Shown here piece after piece: positions 10,241 through 19,186 of a stretch of DNA of 64,000 nucleotides (the first letter of the stretch is position 1; each line of letters begins with the position of its first letter). Made by a program: the position numbers and the translations under genes. The DNA is taken from IMG/VR virus record IMGVR_UViG_3300010885_031309. One strand, given 5' to 3'. The notes under the pieces were generated by a model, which did not search any database, was not told where the DNA came from, and saw only the letters and a list, made by a program, of their open reading frames with translations. Source of the DNA: a virus. Lineage: Duplodnaviria > Caudoviricetes.

Positions 10241-12784
10241 ATGAAAACTAATGAGATAACTTTAACAGAAGCAGCAATGAATCCAAGTGAGTTCGGGAAT
10301 GCTATTGCTCAGTCGGAGAATATGGGTGTACTTGTGGGATTTGAGTTTGAGTTTTGTTTTCCTAAAAATAAAATACAGGAACTTTTCTTATCTAAAGTTG
10401 GCGACTCAATTGATAAACAAGTCAGATATATACTTTCAATAAAATTAATTCGCGATAACGTAGCTAAATTAGACATAATATCTTTTTCCAAAATTATTAC
10501 TTCTGTAGATAAAAAACCCACACTTGAAGTGTATAAGAATTATATTGATAGTGTTTTATCTTCATTTATAAATGAGTACAATAAAACTACCGCAGAATTA
10601 TTGAAGCTGATAAATGGTGCAATTTATAATAAATACGATATAAACAATGTAGTATCATTGGGTGCAAAATTCAAATGGCTAAACCCAATACTTCAATTAG
10701 AGCATAGAAAACAAGAAATTCAATATATTGCATTGCTATCTGATATTATCAGATCAAATCTGCTTGATACTATTTTTGTGCAGAAAATTAATGCTAAAAA
10801 TTTAAATTTTAAAAATCAAGCAAGAAAATTAGCAGACGCGGCAAGATTTGCACTTTCATTACTGAAAACAGCGGACTTCATAACAGCGATAGAGCGTGAA
10901 TTTGGTAATGTCAGTGACGACGATTATGCAGACAATTATACGATTGATCATAAAGGGTTGCAATCAGAATTTCGTGTTACTAGTTTCTCTGAACTTATCA
11001 AAAACCCAGGATGGTATGAAATGGGCGCAGTAATGAAGATGTTGTGCGAAAAATATCTAAATACGAAACCAATATTGTTTAATTCCTACCATGAACGTAA
11101 AAAAGATAGTACACATTGGTATATAGAACCTGATGGTAGTTTACGACCAACTAGCGAAGAAATATCATTGGAGTTTGTTAGCCCTCCAATGAAGCCGCGT
11201 GATGCTATACAGGCACTGCAAATTTTTTATCAAATGGCCAGTGATTATGAATTCAGAACGTCCAAAGAAAGAAAAACTGGATGTCACATAAACGTAAGCA
11301 TTCCTGATAAAATAGATTTGATGAAGTTAGCACTATTTACTGGCGATCAATATATTCTACAGCAGTTTGGTCGCGAGAACAATTCATATGCTCGTAGTGT
11401 TTATGCTGAGCTAAAGTCAAAAAAAATTAGTTCTGCGCTATATTCTATTGACGATAAGTTCACTTTGAAAACTATTGCTGACATAGCAGAAAGGACCATG
11501 GATTCTCATTCTGCCAGTATAAGTGCAGAATCTGATAAAAAATTCATAAGCTTTCGTGGAGTAGGTAGTGATTACTTATCGCAATTTCAAAATGTGGTCA
11601 ACGCTAGTGCTAGATTCGTGCGATCAATGATGATAGCCAGTGATCCTACTCTTTATAGAGACGACTATCTCAAAAAACTTTATACATTATTGAAGAAATA
11701 TCCATCTACAACAACATCGGCGCAGCGTACACGAAAAAAAGTTGAACGAATTAGAACTCTGCGTAATACTATCGAGAGTGAAGGAATTCCAGTTCTAATA
11801 ATAGATGCTTATGTTAGAGATGGAGCTAAAAAGCTCAAAGACGCATTTACATCAGACAGTTCATTTTTATATAACCTAATTCCAGGTAATACCAAAACCA
11901 ATGTTGGATTTATTGTTCAAGTAGATAAAAAACAAGAGGTCATTGACAATTTGATATCTGCTATTAGTACTAATCAGAATGACGTTAAATATTATAATTC
12001 ACCATGGGACAAAGATGAGACAGTAACTGCCATAACAAATAGTGCTGATGGTGTTTATCGTGTAATTTTTTATCCAAAAACTATGCTTGGGTACAACCAA
12101 TTTAGGAAGAGACTACAAAAAGGTCCGGACAAATCACTAAATCATATACGAGTTCAGATGCCAGGATCCTCTATCATGCGATATTATGGGTGGAGACTAA
12201 ATTCATTTAGTATGATGCCTGGCAGTAGTGAATTTGCTACTAAGCTGACTGCTAATATCAAAGCAGAAATTGGAAATGTACTAGATGATCTGAAAAAAAC
12301 CAAAACCAGAAGGCGAAAGCTTCCGGAATCTGTGAGCAAAGCACCCATATACTATTTTGCGTATGGAATGCTAACTAGCGACAGAATAATGAATCAATAT
12401 GCTGCCAATAAAATTGGATCAGCAGCGTTGTCTGGATATAAATTTGAATTACTTGGACATGCCAATGTGATTAGAGATAATCAACATACATGTCAGGGTG
12501 TGTTGTGGCAAATTGACGCAGAAACATTACAAGAGTTGGATGCATTAGAAGGATATCCCGACTACTATACCAGAAAAAAGGTTCGCGTCGTTAGCAAAAA
12601 CAAAACATATAACGCCTGGGTATACACTATGACTGACTCTAGTAGAGCAAATTCATATGAACACGGACATCCATCTAATAATTATGTTAATACCATTGCT
12701 GCTGGGTATCGTAGTGCTGGAATGTCATTCAATCAATTGAACGCGGCAATAAGAGAACTAAACAGTAGATTTGAAGAACAATGA
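10241..12784 (+). CDS. Putative amidoligase (COOH-NH2 ligase type 2) fused to gamma-glutamylcyclotransferase
   Basis: GFEFEF, EPDGSL, LEFVSPP, TGCHINVS; C-terminal YYFAYG...LDALEGYPDYYTR; MKTNEITLTE leader. Confidence 0.8.
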   Translation: MKTNEITLTEAAMNPSEFGNAIAQSENMGVLVGFEFEFCFPKNKIQELFLSKVGDSIDKQVRYILSIKLIRDNVAKLDIISFSKIITSVDKKPTLEVYKNYIDSVLSSFINEYNKTTAELLKLINGAIYNKYDINNVVSLGAKFKWLNPILQLEHRKQEIQYIALLSDIIRSNLLDTIFVQKINAKNLNFKNQARKLADAARFALSLLKTADFITAIEREFGNVSDDDYADNYTIDHKGLQSEFRVTSFSELIKNPGWYEMGAVMKMLCEKYLNTKPILFNSYHERKKDSTHWYIEPDGSLRPTSEEISLEFVSPPMKPRDAIQALQIFYQMASDYEFRTSKERKTGCHINVSIPDKIDLMKLALFTGDQYILQQFGRENNSYARSVYAELKSKKISSALYSIDDKFTLKTIADIAERTMDSHSASISAESDKKFISFRGVGSDYLSQFQNVVNASARFVRSMMIASDPTLYRDDYLKKLYTLLKKYPSTTTSAQRTRKKVERIRTLRNTIESEGIPVLIIDAYVRDGAKKLKDAFTSDSSFLYNLIPGNTKTNVGFIVQVDKKQEVIDNLISAISTNQNDVKYYNSPWDKDETVTAITNSADGVYRVIFYPKTMLGYNQFRKRLQKGPDKSLNHIRVQMPGSSIMRYYGWRLNSFSMMPGSSEFATKLTANIKAEIGNVLDDLKKTKTRRRKLPESVSKAPIYYFAYGMLTSDRIMNQYAANKIGSAALSGYKFELLGHANVIRDNQHTCQGVLWQIDAETLQELDALEGYPDYYTRKKVRVVSKNKTYNAWVYTMTDSSRANSYEHGHPSNNYVNTIAAGYRSAGMSFNQLNAAIRELNSRFEEQ

Positions 12785-13557: not shown

Positions 13558-14472
13558 ATGAAGATCAGCGATTTTCGTATTCACAGCACTGACAAGTTAG
13601 ACGCCATGCTAGCCGAGTGTGTCAGCTTGATACTTGAGCATCAACAACAGGACAGTAAACATTGGGGCATGGTTGCCGCATGTGTATTGGATATGGACAA
13701 TCGCGTCGTGTATGGAGTTAATCATGCCATGCCAGATGGCACCCGCAAACACGCAGAACGAGTGGCTATTGACAACTACCGTGAACAATATGGATCAAAT
13801 CTGGAACATTGTATTGTAATAACTACACTGAGTCCGTGTAGCGAAGATATGGATGAACGACATGGTGATAGTTGCACCAATTTAATCAATGAAGTTGGAA
13901 TTCACAAAGTCTATTGTGGTTATAAAGATCCAAGTCAGCAACACAGTGATGCGTATTTACACAAGCACTTTCATGTTAAATCTACTCGCAATCCAAAATT
14001 GAATGAACTCTGTAAGAAACTGGCAGACACATTTTTAAAATCGGACGACGAGCAATTGACTGAAAATTTTCCTGGAAAAAATAAAAACAATATATACACT
14101 TTATTAGTAAACAGTGTTGGAGCTGGCCCATTTGATGGCGGATGCGTTATTTTTGCCAGAGCACTACAAATGATTTATGGTGGAGAGATAGTGGCATTGA
14201 TTGGATATGCACAGAGTTCTGTTGCATCCAAAAATCCAACTGCACAACATGCTGCACTGTTAGTTGACGGTCGTATGATAGATGCGGACGGAATCAAGTC
14301 ACAAGACGAGTTTGTTCGTAATTTTGAAAATAATGAATTAAAACATGTGGGTGGAAAAATAATCGGAATAAGACCACTGCACAATTCGGATCTATCAGAA
14401 GCACCTCGTGACGAACAACTATCGGCAAAAATATCCAAACTTTTAAAGTCCTCTAGTGCCAAAATAAGTTGA
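13558..14472 (+). CDS. Zn-dependent deaminase fused to a papain/transglutaminase-like domain
   Basis: HAE...LSPC...SC deaminase motif; GGCVIFARAL...QHAAL...IDADG Cys-His-Asp pattern after EQLTE. Confidence 0.7.
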   Translation: MKISDFRIHSTDKLDAMLAECVSLILEHQQQDSKHWGMVAACVLDMDNRVVYGVNHAMPDGTRKHAERVAIDNYREQYGSNLEHCIVITTLSPCSEDMDERHGDSCTNLINEVGIHKVYCGYKDPSQQHSDAYLHKHFHVKSTRNPKLNELCKKLADTFLKSDDEQLTENFPGKNKNNIYTLLVNSVGAGPFDGGCVIFARALQMIYGGEIVALIGYAQSSVASKNPTAQHAALLVDGRMIDADGIKSQDEFVRNFENNELKHVGGKIIGIRPLHNSDLSEAPRDEQLSAKISKLLKSSSAKIS

Positions 14473-14807: not shown

Positions 14808-15073
14808 TGAGCAGCAGCATTCAAGCCATTCACGACGACGAAGCTCAATGGGCCTACATTCGTCGTGTGGCAAACATTCCTGAAGTGTCATGGAGTGTTT
14901 ATAGCAGAGAGGCGACCGTTGCAAAACAGGGTTATACTGAACATGTTTATACCGGTAAACAGCTTAAGCTGTATGTCAAGCAACAGTGTGAATTGAATGA
15001 CTTGAAGCAGCGCCATTCCGCTGAATGGAAAGAACTTGCACTACTACTTGATTTGGAGAACAAATACGGATGA
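14807..15073 (+). CDS. Hypothetical protein
   Basis: Coupled ORF overlapping the polymerase start. Confidence 0.6.
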   Translation: MSSSIQAIHDDEAQWAYIRRVANIPEVSWSVYSREATVAKQGYTEHVYTGKQLKLYVKQQCELNDLKQRHSAEWKELALLLDLENKYG

Positions 15074-17268
15074 GTTATGTTGATGCTATTTTTGATCGCG
15101 AACGAGATACTATTCATGTAGTAGAGCGGTCGCACAACGGTCAGCGACTGTATCAACAGTATCCGGCTAACTATGTTTTTTATTATGATGATCCCAAAGG
15201 AAAGTTTCGTAATCTAAATCACGAGCCAGTAAGTCGCTTTAGTACCCGTAAGCGCGGTGAGTTCATAAAAGAACTTAAGATACACAGTGGAAAACGCAAA
15301 TATGAAAGTGATTTGAATCCAGTATTTCGTTGTTTGGCTGATAACTATTTGGATGCCGAACCTCCGAAACTGCACACTGTATTCTTTGACATTGAAACCG
15401 GCTTCAATCCAGATCGCGGGTTCGCACCAATCACTGATCCATTCAATCCAGTGACAGCAATCTCACTGTATTTGGATTGGCTACAGCAATTGGTTACACT
15501 GTGTATTCCTCCGCGACACATGTCATCTGAAACAGCGCAAGAGATAGCATCTCAATTTGAAAACACATTTGTGTTTGACAATGAAGTAGACATGTTCAAT
15601 GTGTTCTTTGACTTGATAGAAGATGCTGATGCTCTTAGTGGCTGGAATAGCAGTGGATACGATATTCCCTACATGGTTAATCGTGTCACGCGAGTTATGA
15701 GCAAAGATGATACGCGAAGATTTTGTTTGTTAAATCAGTTACCAAAGCTACGCAAGTATATTATGTTTGATCAGGAACAGGAAACATATGATTTAAGTGG
15801 CCGAATTCATATGGACTACTTGGAGTTGTATAAGAAATACAATTACGAAAGTCGTCATAGCTACAAGCTGGACTTTATTGGAGAAATGGAAGTTGGCGAG
15901 AAAAAGGTTCAATACGAGGGAACATTGGATCAGTTGTATAACAAGGATTGGAAAAAATTCTTAGAATACAACCGCCAAGACACCTTGTTGTTGTTTAAGA
16001 TCCATGATAAACTAAAGTTCTTGGATCTTGCCAACAGTATTGCTCATCAGAACACAGTGCTATTACAAACCGTAATGGGCAGTGTAGTAATGATTGAGCA
16101 AGCAATTATTAATGAAGCACATGCTCGTGGATTAGTAGTACCAGATAAAAGGAAAATTAATGAAGATACAGAACCAACAGCAGCCGGTGCCTATGTTGCT
16201 ACGCCCAAAAGGGGCATGCACGAGTGGATCGCGGCGGTTGACATCAACAGTCTCTACCCATCGGCTATCCGCGCTCTTAACATGGCACCGGAAACCATCG
16301 TTGGACAACTCAGACCCACTCTTACAGACAAATACATCGCAGACAAATTAGCCACTGGATTAGAATTCGCGCATGCTTGGGAAGGTTTGTTTGGAACACT
16401 AGAGTACTCTAGTGTAATCAACCAAGAGCGTGGAACAATGATTACCATAGATTGGGAGCGTGGTGGTAGCGAAACTGCCAGTGCGGCCGAAATCTGGAAG
16501 TTAATCTTTGACAGCAATCAACCATGGATGTTAAGTGCTAATGGTACTATATTCACTTACGAGCGCGAGGGTATTATTCCTGGATTGCTTACTAAGTGGT
16601 ACACTGAGCGTAAAGAGATTCAAAAGCAACTTAAAGAAGCAAAGAACGAAGAAGAGCGACAGTTTTATGACAAGCGACAACTGGTAAGAAAGATCCTCTT
16701 AAATTCAGCCTACGGAGCACTGCTTAACATTCACTGCCGGTTCTATGATATCAGAATTGGACAAAGCACTACTCTGTGTGGGCGTCAAATCGTAAAACAT
16801 ATGGGCTCTCATTTAAATGAGCAGATTACTGGGAATTACGATCATAATGGCGAAGCTATTATATACGGCGACAGCGTAACTGGAGACACAATTATTAGAA
16901 CAAGTGATGGTGATATGTCTATAGCTGATTTATTTGATCGGTGTATTGAACATGTTAAAGTTGGTGAAAAAGAATATGGAGTATGGAATGAAACTAAAGT
17001 ATTAGGATTCAATTCGGAATATATGGAAAAAATTGCTGCGCCACTAAACTGCGTAATGAGACATAAAACAAAAAAGAAGTTGTATAAAATTACTACTGCT
17101 AACGGAAAAACAGTAACTGTCACTGAAGATCATAGTGTAATGATTGATCGTGATGGATTTTTGATTGAATGTAAACCAACTGAAATTCTAGAAAATGATT
17201 TAATTATTACACTTTCATCAAAAAATTTCTGGAAACAGAACGGCGGCAGAGGTGTGGAAAAAAGATAG
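15070..17268 (+). CDS. Family B DNA polymerase, N-terminal fragment, fused to the N-half of a split intein
   Basis: Exonuclease FFDIET, GWNS.GYDIPY, YN.QD; motif A VDINSLYPS; motif B KILLNSAYG; ends at YGD|S. Confidence 0.95.
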   Translation: MSYVDAIFDRERDTIHVVERSHNGQRLYQQYPANYVFYYDDPKGKFRNLNHEPVSRFSTRKRGEFIKELKIHSGKRKYESDLNPVFRCLADNYLDAEPPKLHTVFFDIETGFNPDRGFAPITDPFNPVTAISLYLDWLQQLVTLCIPPRHMSSETAQEIASQFENTFVFDNEVDMFNVFFDLIEDADALSGWNSSGYDIPYMVNRVTRVMSKDDTRRFCLLNQLPKLRKYIMFDQEQETYDLSGRIHMDYLELYKKYNYESRHSYKLDFIGEMEVGEKKVQYEGTLDQLYNKDWKKFLEYNRQDTLLLFKIHDKLKFLDLANSIAHQNTVLLQTVMGSVVMIEQAIINEAHARGLVVPDKRKINEDTEPTAAGAYVATPKRGMHEWIAAVDINSLYPSAIRALNMAPETIVGQLRPTLTDKYIADKLATGLEFAHAWEGLFGTLEYSSVINQERGTMITIDWERGGSETASAAEIWKLIFDSNQPWMLSANGTIFTYEREGIIPGLLTKWYTERKEIQKQLKEAKNEEERQFYDKRQLVRKILLNSAYGALLNIHCRFYDIRIGQSTTLCGRQIVKHMGSHLNEQITGNYDHNGEAIIYGDSVTGDTIIRTSDGDMSIADLFDRCIEHVKVGEKEYGVWNETKVLGFNSEYMEKIAAPLNCVMRHKTKKKLYKITTANGKTVTVTEDHSVMIDRDGFLIECKPTEILENDLIITLSSKNFWKQNGGRGVEKR
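16873..17268 (+). mobile_element. Split intein N-fragment (Ser1), Pol-c site
   Basis: SVTGDT after YGD; block B TVTEDHSV; HINT-like end KPTEILENDLIITL plus 17 extra residues. Confidence 0.9.
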
Positions 17269-17395
17269 ATTAAAGATTAAAACAGCAGAAAATTATGGAT
17301 TTAGAGTATTAGTTGTATGGGAATCGGATTTTAGAAAAGACAAGAACAAAACAATTGAAAAGGTGACAGAATGGATTGTGAATGGACAAAAGTAA
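17204..17395 (+). pseudogene. C-terminal remnant of a Vsr-like homing endonuclease
   Basis: Alternative frame, no start codon: HFHQKISGNRTAAEVWKKDRLKIKTAENYGFRVLVVWESDFRKDKNKTIEKVTEWIVNGQK*. Confidence 0.75.
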
Positions 17396-17496
17396 GTAAA
17401 ATAGAATGTTTAGGAGAAGTAGATGATTATGTATACGATATAAGTATAGAAGAACAGGATCCGTTCTTTTTTGCTAATGATATTTTAGTACATAAC
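17371..17496 (+). mobile_element. Split intein C-fragment (42 aa, ends HN, +1 Thr)
   Basis: MDCEW...YVYDISIE...FFANDILVHN|TDS; own AAGGTGA ribosome-binding site. Confidence 0.9.
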
Positions 17497-18390
17497 ACCG
17501 ATAGCTGCTATTTCAGTGCATGGCCAACTTTGAGCAAGGATGAAAACTTCATGAAATCTTGGAACAAAGATGTGGCTGTTAATATCTATGATCAACTTGC
17601 AGAAAATACAAATCTCAGCTTTCCAGAATTTATGGAGCGAGCGTTTCATTGTCCGCGAAAGAGTGGAGCGATCATTAAAGCTGGACGAGAGCTAGTAGCA
17701 GATCGTGGTTTGTTTATTACAAAAAAGCGTTATGCCGTTAACATCTATGACAAAGAGGGAGACAGACTTGATTTGTACGATGAGAAGCGGGCAGCAAAAA
17801 AGGGTGTAATATCGGGCATGGGTAAAATCAAGGCAATGGGTCTTGATCTAAAACGCGCCGACACTCCCAAGTATATTCAGAATTTCTTGATGAATGTGTT
17901 GATTGATGTTCTTCGTGGACATGAACGACAAGCGATTGTTGATAAAATTGTTCAGTTCAAAACAGAATTAGAGAAGCAACCAAGTTGGACCATGGGAAGT
18001 CCCAAGGGCGTTAACAAGCTAACCTGGTATGGCGAACAGCAGGAAAAATCCGATAAAAAGATAAACATGCCCGGGCATGTTCGTGCTAGCTTAAATTGGA
18101 ATTATCTAAGAACACTCAATAACGATAATCACAGTCAAAAAATTGTAGATGGTATGAAAATAGTTGTGTGCAAGCTAAAAGACAATCTATTGGGAATGAC
18201 TAGCATAGCATATCCAACAGATGAATTGCGATTGCCACAGTGGTTCTTAGAATTGCCATTTGACGATAAAGACATGATTAATACATTGGTTGATGAAAAG
18301 ATTAATAATCTTATTGGAGTGTTAAATTGGAAAATTTCCAACGACATTAACATCAACAGTACATTTAACAGCTTGTTTACATTCAGTTAA
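17371..18390 (+). CDS. Family B DNA polymerase, C-terminal fragment, fused to the intein C-half
   Basis: TDSCYF completes YGDTDS; KKRYAV, KAMGLDLKRADTP. Confidence 0.95.
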   Translation: MDCEWTKVSKIECLGEVDDYVYDISIEEQDPFFFANDILVHNTDSCYFSAWPTLSKDENFMKSWNKDVAVNIYDQLAENTNLSFPEFMERAFHCPRKSGAIIKAGRELVADRGLFITKKRYAVNIYDKEGDRLDLYDEKRAAKKGVISGMGKIKAMGLDLKRADTPKYIQNFLMNVLIDVLRGHERQAIVDKIVQFKTELEKQPSWTMGSPKGVNKLTWYGEQQEKSDKKINMPGHVRASLNWNYLRTLNNDNHSQKIVDGMKIVVCKLKDNLLGMTSIAYPTDELRLPQWFLELPFDDKDMINTLVDEKINNLIGVLNWKISNDININSTFNSLFTFS

Positions 18391-18407: not shown

Positions 18408-18436
18408 TTGACTTGTGTAACACATCGCACTATAAT
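18408..18436 (+). promoter_or_regulatory. Sigma70-type promoter
   Basis: TTGACT-17 nt-TATAAT upstream of 18458. Confidence 0.7.
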
Positions 18437-18457: not shown

Positions 18458-19186
18458 ATGCGTGACTATTTAGAAGATATTATTCAACATACTTGCAGTC
18501 TTGGAAATATTGATTTAATAAAGATTGTTGGCGATCAAAATGAAACTTCAATTCGGTCTTTGACCGAAGATCGTTTCGTAATATTGAACGGAAAATTCAA
18601 GAACCCAAATCAGCAATTTGCTGGTGTTTTTGGAATGCCAAATCTTCCAAAACTCAAGACTATTCTTGGTTTTGATGAGTATGATGACAGTGCAATCATT
18701 CAAATGACACATCAACAACAAAATGGAGTTAATGTTCCTGCTGCCATTCACTTTGAAACTAAAAGTGGTGACTTTGTTAATGATTATAGACTAATGGGTC
18801 AGACTATTGTAGAAGATAAAATTCGCGATGTAAAATTTCAGGGTGCTAGTTGGAATGTACAATTTGAACCAAAAGTCAGCAGCGTTATTCGGCTAAAAAA
18901 GCAATCTCAGGCCAACAGTGAAGAAACTCTGTTTACAGTTAAAACTGAGGGCGGACACTTGAAGATGTTCTTTGGTAACATGTCAACACACAGTGGAAAT
19001 TTCGTATTTGAAAGCAATGTAACAGGAGCTCTGCAACGAACTTGGCGCTGGCCAATTCGCCCATTTTTGGCAATCATGGATTTGTTGGGTGACAAGCAAG
19101 TGTACATTAGCGATCAGGGCGCTATGAGAATTACGGTTGATAGTGGACTAGTAGACTACGAATATTTGCTTCCTGCACAAACTTAA
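18458..19186 (+). CDS. Probable sliding clamp (gp45-like)
   Basis: Size, beta-rich pattern and position after DNA polymerase. Confidence 0.5.
   Translation: MRDYLEDIIQHTCSLGNIDLIKIVGDQNETSIRSLTEDRFVILNGKFKNPNQQFAGVFGMPNLPKLKTILGFDEYDDSAIIQMTHQQQNGVNVPAAIHFETKSGDFVNDYRLMGQTIVEDKIRDVKFQGASWNVQFEPKVSSVIRLKKQSQANSEETLFTVKTEGGHLKMFFGNMSTHSGNFVFESNVTGALQRTWRWPIRPFLAIMDLLGDKQVYISDQGAMRITVDSGLVDYEYLLPAQT

Follow-up and report, generated by a model that had tools for sequence, protein, structure and literature searches.

The question raised by this locus is how an intact family B DNA polymerase (PolB) can be made from two adjacent genes when the break between them falls inside the catalytic YGDTDS motif. 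The locus belongs to a freshwater jumbo phage and was analysed within a 64,000-nucleotide stretch of its DNA, hereafter the window. The phage is without a close cultured relative, the best matches being the PA5oct-like phages, Phosso and Atu_ph07, with whose polymerases the N-extein shares about 50% amino-acid identity. An earlier note on this DNA had proposed that the polymerase is split by a Ser1/Thr+1 intein placed in YGDTDS, and the open reading frames, the motifs and the Pfam matches all agree with that proposal. We consider it quite probable that this is a fractured PolB gene which has lost most of its invader, and that its two products trans-splice into an 898-aa polymerase.

A polymerase gene in two parts

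The features of the locus are as follows (a slash in a motif marks an intein boundary; HEG, homing endonuclease gene; L numbers denote related alleles from viral contigs).

15070..17268, + strand: ORF 1, PolB up to YGD plus the N-intein, 732 aa
15070..16872, + strand: N-extein, PolB exonuclease and polymerase domains, ending ..IIYGD, 601 aa (Pfam and homology)
16873..17214, + strand: IntN core, 114 aa (Pfam, match to PDB 9hth, alignment of 52 IntN)
17215..17268, + strand: IntN tail, 17 codons plus TAG (IntN ends of relatives, junction alignment to L005)
17219..17223, + strand: deletion junction at an AAAA microhomology (DNA comparison with the L005 IntN end and HEG interior)
17219..17395, + strand: endonuclease remnant in frame 2, 58 codons plus TAA (tblastn, BLASTP, weak Pfam)
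17360-17365, + strand: Shine-Dalgarno AAGGTG of the IntC gene, within the endonuclease remnant (sequence)
17371..18390, + strand: ORF 2, C-intein plus the remaining PolB, 339 aa
17371..17496, + strand: IntC, 42 aa, with block F DYVYD and block G His41-Asn42 (Pfam, alignment of 42 IntC)
17497..18390, + strand: C-extein, from Thr+1, TDSCYF plus the rest of PolB, 297 aa plus stop (tblastn, colinearity)

Both ORFs are read in one common frame, and they are separated by five in-frame stops (TAG 17266, TAA 17278, TAG 17302, TAG 17332 and TGA 17356), exactly as had been claimed. The fragment ends are likewise those previously described, since the first runs ..IIYGD/SVTGDT..TVTEDHSV..DLIITL and continues into a 17-aa tail, while the second reads MDCEW..VYDISIE..ILVHN/TDSCYF and is preceded by its own ribosome-binding site, AAGGTG, at a distance of 5 nt from the ATG. 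The N-extein matches DNA_pol_B_exo1 (5.7e-20) and DNA_pol_B (3.3e-33), and the C-extein is 46% identical to the C-fragment of PA5oct over 97% of the query in tblastn and is colinear with the intein-less allele L070 across YGDTDSCYF. Neither extein and neither intein half contains a frameshift or a stop, and dN/dS is about 0.1 on both halves with dS near saturation against the relatives; by this measure both PolB halves are under long-term purifying selection. No promoter-like or terminator-like sites were found between the halves, and no tRNA genes were found in the window.

The intein halves

The IntN core scores 42.3 bits on its own against the Pfam family Intein_splicing (PF14890, cut-off 35.8), and the whole of fragment 1 scores 38.3 bits over profile positions 10-95. 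Residues 2-42 of fragment 2 take up positions 117-155 of the same profile with 28.3 bits, a partial match that falls below the cut-off when taken alone, as is expected since it covers only a quarter of the domain. IntC is furthermore 81-95% identical to the IntC of L005 and L014. The motifs of a class-1 Ser1/Thr+1 intein are all present: Ser1 directly follows IIYGD and is invariant in 52 relatives, block B is found as Thr84-Glu-Asp-His87 inside VTEDHS and is near-invariant, the NX motif is Arg63-His64 in MRHKTKKK and is conserved in the clade (KH in the Aes intein), and the block F aspartate (DYVYD), the block G His-Asn (..LVHN) and the +1 nucleophile (the threonine of TDSCYF) are in place. 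In the alignments of 52 IntN and 42 IntC these positions are invariant or nearly so. A histidine following arginine or lysine in the NX motif is reported to be a signature of Ser1/Ser(Thr)+1 inteins (PMC10189870). With separate ORFs, an IntN of 114 aa plus the 17-aa tail, an IntC of 42 aa, five intervening stops and a Shine-Dalgarno sequence before the second ATG, the sequence supports a class-1 (HINT fold) Ser1/Thr+1 intein that is naturally split at the endonuclease position and inserted at YGD/TDS of a T4-like PolB. Reading the intein as cysteine-less does not survive, since there are five non-catalytic cysteines, namely Cys24, Cys60 and Cys100 in IntN and Cys3 and Cys13 in IntC.

We infer that the two halves associate. 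Their predicted complex has an ipSAE of 0.70, the best of 3 controls being 0.00, although a related complex has been solved and the value may therefore partly reflect memory; among 78 solved complexes 51 attain this ipSAE mark, as do 2 of 108 mismatched pairs.

The arrangement is already known in phages and the window is a further case of it, homologous fractured PolB genes being found in Aeromonas, Campylobacter, Tenacibaculum, Vibrio, Klebsiella and Pseudomonas phages. The closest characterised system is the PolB1 intein of Aes123 and other T4-like phages of Aeromonas salmonicida (Aes508, JN377894; PDB 9hth; the engineered CL/CLm inteins), which lies in the same motif of the same host protein, begins with Ser1, has the NX histidine and is split at the endonuclease position. 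Its IntN is homologous to ours at about 38% identity (E 3.3e-15 to 9hth; for Aes123, JN377899.1, H40 in our comparison, tblastn gives 37.9% and E 1e-12). As a precedent at the same site Aes123 holds only in part, for the homologous split intein is there but it is inserted two codons downstream, at DTD/S with Ser+1, the reading in Aes508, CP21, PTm1, VPALA and PA5oct being x-DTD/S...HN/S, whereas the window reads YGD/S...HN/TDS with Thr+1. Unlike the window intein, the Aes intein is cysteine-less, and Aes508 has kept between its halves a Vsr-domain ORF of the kind that the window has mostly lost. Trans-splicing of Aes123 PolB1 has been demonstrated experimentally, and the natural Aes IntN is about 30% efficient in vitro owing to aggregation (PMC11923092).

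The insertion site of the window, YGD/S...N/TDS with Thr+1, is shared by Klebsiella phage KP13-7 (OP617745) and Salicola phage SCTP-2 (MF360958), whose IntN are about 35-37% identical to that of the window; in KP13-7 the polymerase gene is fractured and the Vsr-like gene (EVHGDYWH..VIWESDW) intact, the pieces being annotated only as hypothetical proteins; the mini-intein of SCTP-2 is contiguous within a single ORF of 1089 aa and ends in KN, not HN; and neither carries a truncated endonuclease stump. The PolB intein of Nanoarchaeum equitans presumably also occupies exactly this insertion site. It is likewise a naturally split, cysteine-independent intein of Ser1/Thr+1 type in a family B polymerase (Choi et al. 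2006, as cited by later authors), but it is archaeal and thermophilic, with its halves at distant loci and no endonuclease trace. It too has a histidine matching the NX motif (PMC10189870).

The endonuclease remnant and its relatives

The frame-2 reading between and across the two genes corresponds to the last 58 codons of a free-standing Vsr-like (DUF559/EDxHD-type) HEG of about 320 aa. In tblastn it is 58.6% identical to residues 263-320 of the HEG of L005 (E 3e-17) and 61.8% identical to residues 265-319 of that of L014, BLASTP finds Aes508_035 (E 5e-9) and the PTm1 'VSR endonuclease' (E 2e-10), and the Pfam matches to MTES_1575/DUF559 are weak. It aligns downstream of the catalytic motif and is without a start, the E..D-x-H..D core (FNGDYWH region) and about 262 N-terminal codons; no intact free-standing HEG lies between the IntN and IntC genes and no further endonuclease copy was found in the 64-kb window. 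Its stop (17393-17395) overlaps the IntC gene, counted from the ATG at 17371, by 25 nt, which is also the overlap in L005 and L014. The 'Hef-like' endonuclease that intervenes in PA5oct was considered as a relative of the remnant and rejected (E 0.46), a different invader being present in that clade.

DNA comparison with L005 places the junction at the AAAA microhomology, where about 850 nt have been deleted in the lineage of the window, including a hairpin with a Shine-Dalgarno sequence in its loop that lies upstream of the HEG in relatives. The 17-aa tail exists because the same deletion took out the stop codon of IntN, which in relatives comes 1-4 residues past DLII(T/C)(L/F). Its first residues, SSK, are the normal IntN end, and the 14 codons that follow result from reading the endonuclease remnant out of frame and are unique among 52 relatives. 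Judged from these alignments, tail and gap are thus leftovers of the deleted Vsr-like HEG and not plain spacer. The tail is absent from the residues named in the predicted IntN-IntC interface, and 14 novel residues on the C-terminus of IntN could lower the efficiency of splicing. The remnant has a dN/dS of 0.25-0.35 against L005 and L014, the same as pairs of intact genes, and dN/dS, with dS saturated against all relatives, resolves neither selection since the deletion nor the timing of that event.

The HEG is intact between the PolB halves in 29 of 45 distinct related alleles from viral contigs, in the order IntN, Vsr-like HEG of about 320 aa, IntC with the 25-nt overlap, and this intact arrangement is annotated in Aes508 and PTm1. 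Another 12 distinct alleles in related contigs are split as well but have lost all or part of the HEG. Where a stump can be recognised, the 3' end of the HEG has been retained, and this is where the IntC ribosome-binding site is located; the shortest alleles (L038, L059-62) have no recognisable stump.

A free-standing Vsr-like HEG between split-intein halves is what Dassa et al. (2009, NAR 37:2560, PMC2677866) describe as fractured genes. The likeness covers adjacent same-strand N-extein-IntN and IntC-C-extein genes, a phage replication gene as host and a Vsr-like HEG whose 3' end overlaps and supplies the start of IntC. Loss of the whole HEG is step III of the model given there and was observed at the locus gp41-7, where the halves are still adjacent after the loss, as they are in the window. 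On that model our locus fits the derived state in which the endonuclease is lost. It differs from what is set out there in that the HEG has gone only in part and by a route that can be traced, with 58 of about 320 codons left and the junction mapped to a microhomology, in that the IntN stop has been removed and a novel 14-residue tail gained, and in that PolB at YGD/TDS was not found among the loci in the part of the paper available (PMC2677866).

Probable trans-splicing, its alternatives and the fate of the locus

The motifs, the homology to Aes123, the predicted complex and the presence of the allele in three metagenomes point to trans-splicing as the likely way in which an intact polymerase is made. 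The ancestor had a class-1 Ser1/Thr+1 intein at YGD/TDS, cut by a free-standing Vsr-like HEG at the usual endonuclease position, from which the deletion of about 850 nt at AAAA removed the stop codons of IntN, the hairpin upstream of the HEG and HEG codons 1 to about 262. The remaining 58 codons still contain the Shine-Dalgarno sequence and overlap the IntC ATG. Both genes are probably co-transcribed, and their 732-aa and 339-aa products probably associate via IntN and IntC and then trans-splice, probably through oxyester intermediates. An N-O shift at Ser1 would be followed by transesterification to Thr+1, cyclisation of Asn42 and an O-N shift, to give a polymerase of 601 plus 297 aa, that is 898 aa, with its YGDTDS motif intact. 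We infer that an active enzyme depends on this reaction, by which a further essential replication enzyme of phages would probably rely on protein trans-splicing. The analysis covered 64 kb of the genome, however, and a second replicative polymerase may be encoded elsewhere.

It might be argued that the split is an artefact of assembly, or that one polypeptide is made by recoding, either by readthrough or by two frameshifts via the frame-2 remnant that overlaps the ends of both ORFs, and read depth is indeed low (3-8) in the runs holding the split allele. Nonetheless a contig from another sample and another study (X2) is identical to 16891-17535 and one from a third study (X3) to 17021-17355, both with 0 differences, and misassembly across 17200-17400, on which the earlier note had made its reading depend, is therefore unlikely, as an independent assembly reproduces the whole junction exactly. 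The junction is identical in contigs assembled from three runs, each belonging to a different study (2017 and 2022), which shows that the split allele recurs in nature. None of 50,697 phage records matched the junction in a megablast search. Readthrough is ruled out by the five stops, among which all three kinds occur, as the note had held, while recoding would need two opposite frameshifts in a gap with no apparent slippery site and with no more RNA structure than chance (fold z-score 0.76). In relatives the polymerase is likewise encoded by two genes, with a complete gene separating them, and we regard this explanation as extremely unlikely. Somewhat less so, though still very unlikely in our view, is that the fragments assemble non-covalently with the intein halves as a mere dimerisation module. 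Fractured genes without inteins whose products function as associated subunits, such as gp43A/gp43B and Aeh1 NrdA, are cited in Dassa 2009 (PMC2677866), Aes508 has an additional intein-less gp43A/gp43B break farther upstream, and the complex prediction speaks for binding and is silent on chemistry. The break in the window is however inside YGDTDS, so that about 170 intein residues, if not spliced out, would occupy the active site, and the strict conservation across the clade of the splicing residues (Ser1, RH, TxxH, D, HN and Thr+1) would be unnecessary for mere dimerisation.

The last alternative is that the deletion crippled the polymerase, by the tail, by lost regulation or by altered expression of the IntC gene, and that the allele is a decaying one carried by a defective or helper-dependent variant. 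In agreement with this, the tail is unique to the window, and an allele that lacks the intein but whose flanks are about 99% identical, from another sample of the same study, is roughly tenfold deeper there (word depth 31 vs about 3), which may mean that the split allele is the less fit form. On the other hand runs from three studies five years apart yielded assemblies identical at every base, the coding sequence of both exteins and both intein halves is uninterrupted, the IntC gene has kept both its Shine-Dalgarno sequence and its ATG, and the 12 other alleles that have likewise lost their HEG in part or whole keep its 3' end whenever a recognisable stump is left. Decay thus appears improbable, if a little less so than the two explanations above, and trans-splicing of a working split gene is the reading that we prefer.

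On that reading the locus is an example, dated in sequence, of a fractured gene that sheds its endonuclease and retains the signals needed by the downstream half. Characterised mesophilic Ser1/Ser+1 split inteins include those of Aes123, CP21, LCGC14, GOM-OPS-1 and PolB16, and Neq Pol is a thermophilic split intein (literature including PMC10189870), and our literature search did not find a characterised mesophilic Ser1/Thr+1 split intein from a phage. More than 40 natural sequence variants of the clade are present in public viral contigs and are a potential source of such an intein, although the window member is not cysteine-less.

The relatives furthermore form a natural deletion series, informative on what a split intein needs for expression and on the reversibility of splitting. 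The 13 distinct deletion alleles are scattered tips next to endonuclease-intact sisters, and the free-standing HEG appears to have been lost many times independently via short-homology deletions, some of which appear to fuse the intein halves in frame into contiguous mini-inteins. If so, reversion of a naturally split intein to a cis-splicing mini-intein is possible. It is seen most clearly in L021, which equals L016 minus the HEG, with the join at an AAAA(C)GGTAAA repeat and 9 nt of the HEG 3' end left. Whether the clade preserves every stage in the life cycle of a fractured gene, through repeated losses of the HEG and some reversions and with the window as a frozen intermediate, we judge to be evenly balanced. 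The intein-less allele has a hyper-divergent 40-nt patch at the insertion site, and compared with 12 relatives both versions of this patch are equally distant with respect to gain or loss of the intein; if the cycle is real, this strain would represent its final or its first stage.

The split polymerase locus and its assembly

The PolB gene of the window, which stems from a freshwater metagenome, is divided between two open reading frames that share a frame and are separated by five stops, and the second has a ribosome-binding site of its own, in both respects as the earlier note had described.

15070..17268, + strand: PolB fragment 1 with the N-terminal intein half (IntN), 732 aa
17266 (TAG), 17278 (TAA), 17302 (TAG), 17332 (TAG), 17356 (TGA): in-frame stops between the two ORFs
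17360-17365: Shine-Dalgarno sequence AAGGTG, 5 nt upstream of ATG 17371
17371..18390, + strand: C-terminal intein half (IntC) with the PolB remainder, 339 aa, same frame as 15070..17268

Up to ..IIYGD, fragment 1 gives Pfam matches to DNA_pol_B_exo1 and DNA_pol_B, and thereafter it corresponds to the N-terminal two thirds of an intein splicing domain (38.3 bits, or 42.3 bits for IntN alone, against a cut-off of 35.8 bits). Residues 2-42 of fragment 2 match the last quarter of the same domain (profile positions 117-155) and are directly followed by TDSCYF and the rest of PolB. The flanking polymerase parts, an N-extein of 601 aa and a C-extein of 297 aa, add up to 898 aa and are colinear with the intein-less relative L070 across ..YGDTDSCYFSAWP... 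The Pfam matches and conserved motifs support the proposal of a natural Ser1/Thr+1 split intein within the YGDTDS motif, and the earlier description of the locus was accurate in all details checked.

A misassembly across 17200-17400, which had been raised as a concern, was addressed by comparing Logan contigs with window 16400-18000, the comparison being one of contigs of low depth (3-8) and not of reads. Sequencing run X1, possibly the source of the window, covers the whole stretch and is identical. Run X2, from another sample and study (2017), covers 16891-17535 with 0 differences in a contig that begins at the 7th codon of IntN and spans the gap and the whole of IntC, and run X3, from a third study (2022), covers 17021-17355 and 17381-17805, likewise with 0 differences. 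Since independent assemblies reproduce the junction, it is unlikely to be a misassembly.

Furthermore, run X4, from the same study as X3, contains a 4584-nt contig (word depth 31) without the intein, the flanks of which differ from the window at 4 of 445 and 2 of 492 positions (6/937; ~99% identical). It omits window 16845-17508 and has 40 other letters in place, which read in frame as ..H-TGEAVIYGD-TDSI-YF... and leave the polymerase uninterrupted; compared with the 28 + 12 extein bases of the window, 17/40 positions of this patch differ, mostly synonymously. The site is polymorphic for presence of the intein, and the patch resembles a recombination tract: a short hyper-divergent stretch exactly at the insertion site, with ~99% identical DNA around it, is what such a tract would be expected to leave. 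The patch could stem from co-conversion during intein gain or from intein loss against a divergent template, and comparison with 12 relatives did not discriminate between the two.

Prospects of trans-splicing

We consider it probable that the two products trans-splice into an active polymerase. When 52 distinct IntN and 42 distinct IntC sequences are aligned, the invariant or near-invariant elements are Ser1, the Arg/Lys-His pair in MRHKTKKK, VTEDHS (block B), DYVYD (block F) and HN followed by TDS, and the window intein keeps Ser1, Arg63-His64, Thr84/His87, His41-Asn42 of IntC and Thr+1. The R/K-H pair corresponds to the "NX motif", which is reported to mark inteins of the Ser1/Ser(Thr)+1 type (PMC10189870). 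The nearest solved structure is 9hth, an Aeromonas phage intein (E 3.3e-15), and trans-splicing in vitro has been demonstrated for the natural Aes123 PolB1 split intein (AesN 120 aa, AesC 39 aa), whose efficiency of ~30% is limited by aggregation of its IntN (PMC11923092).

Binding of the two halves is supported by complex prediction, in which IntN with 5 extein residues and its tail was paired with IntC with 5 extein residues: the predicted complex has an ipSAE of 0.70 with the best control at 0.00, a mark attained by 51/78 solved complexes and 2/108 mismatched pairs, although a like complex has been solved and the pass may partly be memory. The named interface residues reach 121 of chain 1 and the novel tail is not among them. 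Against the nearest relatives dN/dS is ~0.1 for both IntN and IntC, which with dS saturated speaks of long-term constraint only. Co-transcription of the two PolB genes is also likely, since neither a promoter-like or terminator-like site nor an unusual RNA structure was found between them.

As to use under oxidising conditions, which the earlier note had mentioned for Ser-initiated split inteins, the intein is not cysteine-less, as it has five non-catalytic cysteines, and such use would need engineering of this intein or a different member of the clade.

An endonuclease remnant and a natural deletion series

The gap between the PolB halves is the stump of a Vsr-like homing endonuclease gene. 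Frame 2 is open over 17204-17395 and from 17219 corresponds to the extreme C-terminus of the ~320-aa product of a gene that separates the intein halves in related viral contigs, with 58.6% identity to residues 263-320 of the L005 protein (E 3e-17) and 61.8% to residues 265-319 of that of L014. Two annotated phage proteins match it with their last ~45 residues as well, namely Aes508_035 ("similar to VSR endonuclease domain"; E 5e-9) and the "VSR endonuclease" of Tenacibaculum phage PTm1 (E 2e-10). The catalytic core and ~262 N-terminal codons are gone, and no second copy of the gene was found within the 64-kb window.

By DNA comparison with L005 the deletion junction falls in an AAAA run at 17219-17223, upstream of which the window matches the IntN end through the SSK codons (SPK in L005) and downstream of which it resumes within the coding sequence of the endonuclease, at ..KI(I/S)GN... 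The deletion of ~850 nt took the stop codons of IntN (TAATAATAA in L005), a hairpin with a GGAG ribosome-binding site in its loop and most of the endonuclease gene. The hairpin lies 3' of the IntN stop and just 5' of the endonuclease ATG, as in ATGCTGATA-GGAG-TATCAGCAT-ATG, and is kept in 5/5 intact relatives shown (L005:4625-4662, L014:4565-4599, L016, L020, L026). Because its stop was deleted, IntN reads 14 more codons out of frame through the stump, and its "17-aa tail" is thus a by-product of the deletion. The retained 3' end carries the Shine-Dalgarno sequence of the IntC gene, which the stump overlaps by 25 nt, the same as in L005 and L014. Dassa et al. (2009, PMC2677866), who described Vsr-like endonucleases in "fractured genes", proposed that the invading element brings exactly such signals for the downstream half; they also described translational attenuator hairpins to which the GGAG-loop hairpin is similar, and observed endonuclease loss, step III of their model, at one locus (gp41-7).

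An IMG/VR scan gave 74 loci with 45 distinct intein sequences having both halves. The endonuclease gene is intact in 29/45 (~965-985 nt from IntN end to IntC start), partly or wholly deleted from a split intein in 13/45, window included, with gaps of 378, 210, 207, 180, 156 (window), 130, 124, 107, 48 and 47 nt, and three (L069, L021, L057) are contiguous in-frame mini-inteins without a stop. Intein-less relatives are L072-L077 and L070, the latter being the closest extein relative (90% and 82% amino-acid identity). On a maximum-likelihood tree built from IntN+IntC, the deleted forms appear as scattered tips, and every one of them has sisters in which the endonuclease gene is intact (L006, L011, L013 and L014 for the window), and since they are so scattered the gene appears to have been lost many times. 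All recognisable stumps (gaps 107-378 nt) include the 3' end, the site of the IntC Shine-Dalgarno sequence. In L017, ~20 codons survive at the 5' side of the gene and just a few at the 3' side, and no stump can be recognised in the shortest split alleles (L038; L059-62). Retention of the 3' end would be consistent with selective pressure to keep the downstream half expressed. The main value of the locus lies in this natural deletion series, in the intein-plus/intein-minus polymorphism and in a possible mesophilic Ser1/Thr+1 split intein for engineering.

One pair bears on the passage between split and contiguous forms. L016 and L021 are nearly identical, and L021 (4595-4660, compared with L016:4293-4352 and L016:5245-5310) consists of the L016 IntN end, 9 nt from the 3' terminus of the L016 endonuclease gene (GGTAAAAAA) and the IntC ATG, joined across an AAAA(C)GGTAAA repeat to give ..ICLKGKKMDIERT.. 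in one frame. The simplest reading, on which our judgement is evenly balanced, would be that a split intein was turned back into a cis-intein by deletion; the same pair may also reflect the opposite direction, namely homing of the endonuclease into a contiguous intein.

Insertion sites, cultured relatives and other genes

The exteins are ~50% identical to polymerases of PA5oct-like Pseudomonas jumbo phages, Sinorhizobium phage Phosso and Agrobacterium phage Atu_ph07, and no nucleotide-level match was found among cultured phages. A split PolB with an intein at the YGDTDS motif is already known and partly annotated, the window being a new case.

PolB inteins of cultured phages (slash, insertion point)
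Aeromonas Aes508, AS-gz and others: "intein-containing split DNA polymerase precursor", Vsr-domain ORF between; DTD/S, Ser+1
Tenacibaculum PTm1: "VSR endonuclease" between halves; DTD/S, Ser+1
Campylobacter CP21: Vsr-like gene between halves; DTD/S, Ser+1
Vibrio VPALA: Vsr-like gene between halves; DTD/S, Ser+1
Klebsiella KP13-7: intact Vsr-like gene between halves; YGD/TDS, Thr+1
Pseudomonas PA5oct group: unrelated 560-aa "Hef-like" endonuclease between halves; DTD/S, Ser+1
Salicola SCTP-2: contiguous mini-intein; YGD/TDS, Thr+1

Insertion thus occurs at two points, which lie two codons from each other: the upstream YGD/TDS, used by the window together with the IMG/VR clade, KP13-7 and SCTP-2, and the downstream DTD/S, used by Aes508, CP21, PTm1, VPALA and PA5oct (L001:2630-2670, L002:3480-3518, L003:3480-3518, L079 and L081 compared with window 16858-16890). 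Inteins at both are homologous, with an S-V-x-G-D start and an ILVHN end. Aes123 PolB1, which had been placed at the same site as the window intein, lies two codons downstream and therefore counts as a homologue rather than an allele. The characterised split inteins Aes123, CP21, LCGC14, GOM-OPS-1 and PolB16 are Ser+1 and that of Neq Pol is thermophilic; a literature search gave no mesophilic phage split intein of the Ser1/Thr+1 type that has been characterised, and the window intein is possibly one for engineering.

All three genes of KP13-7 (L080; OP617745.1 350363-355126) are annotated only as hypothetical proteins, and the annotated start of its C-fragment lies ~85 codons upstream of IntC. 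The contiguous mini-inteins of L057 (4493-4660) and SCTP-2 (L004) end in Lys-Asn, not His-Asn (..ILLKN/TDS). In L014:3839-4567 and L063:3887-4612 the N-extein seems to be broken again further upstream, since the IntN-bearing ORF is only ~242 aa with a non-polymerase-like leader, a break comparable to that of gp43A/gp43B in Aeromonas phages.

The window also encodes dCMP deaminase, UvdE, a 5'-3' exonuclease, DNA and RNA ligases, ClpX, RimK, a GT4 glycosyltransferase and an amidoligase-GGACT fusion, a content that fits a large phage. The protein of 847 aa at 10241-12784 has a weak amidoligase match and a C-terminal gamma-glutamyl cyclotransferase (GGACT/AIG2) domain, and that of 304 aa at 13558-14472 has a dCMP/cytidine deaminase domain followed by ~180 residues without a Pfam match. 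A near-consensus sigma-70-like promoter (TTGACT, 17 nt, TATAAT; 11/12 matches) lies at 18408-18436, directly 3' of the polymerase C-fragment and 5' of the ORF at 18458.
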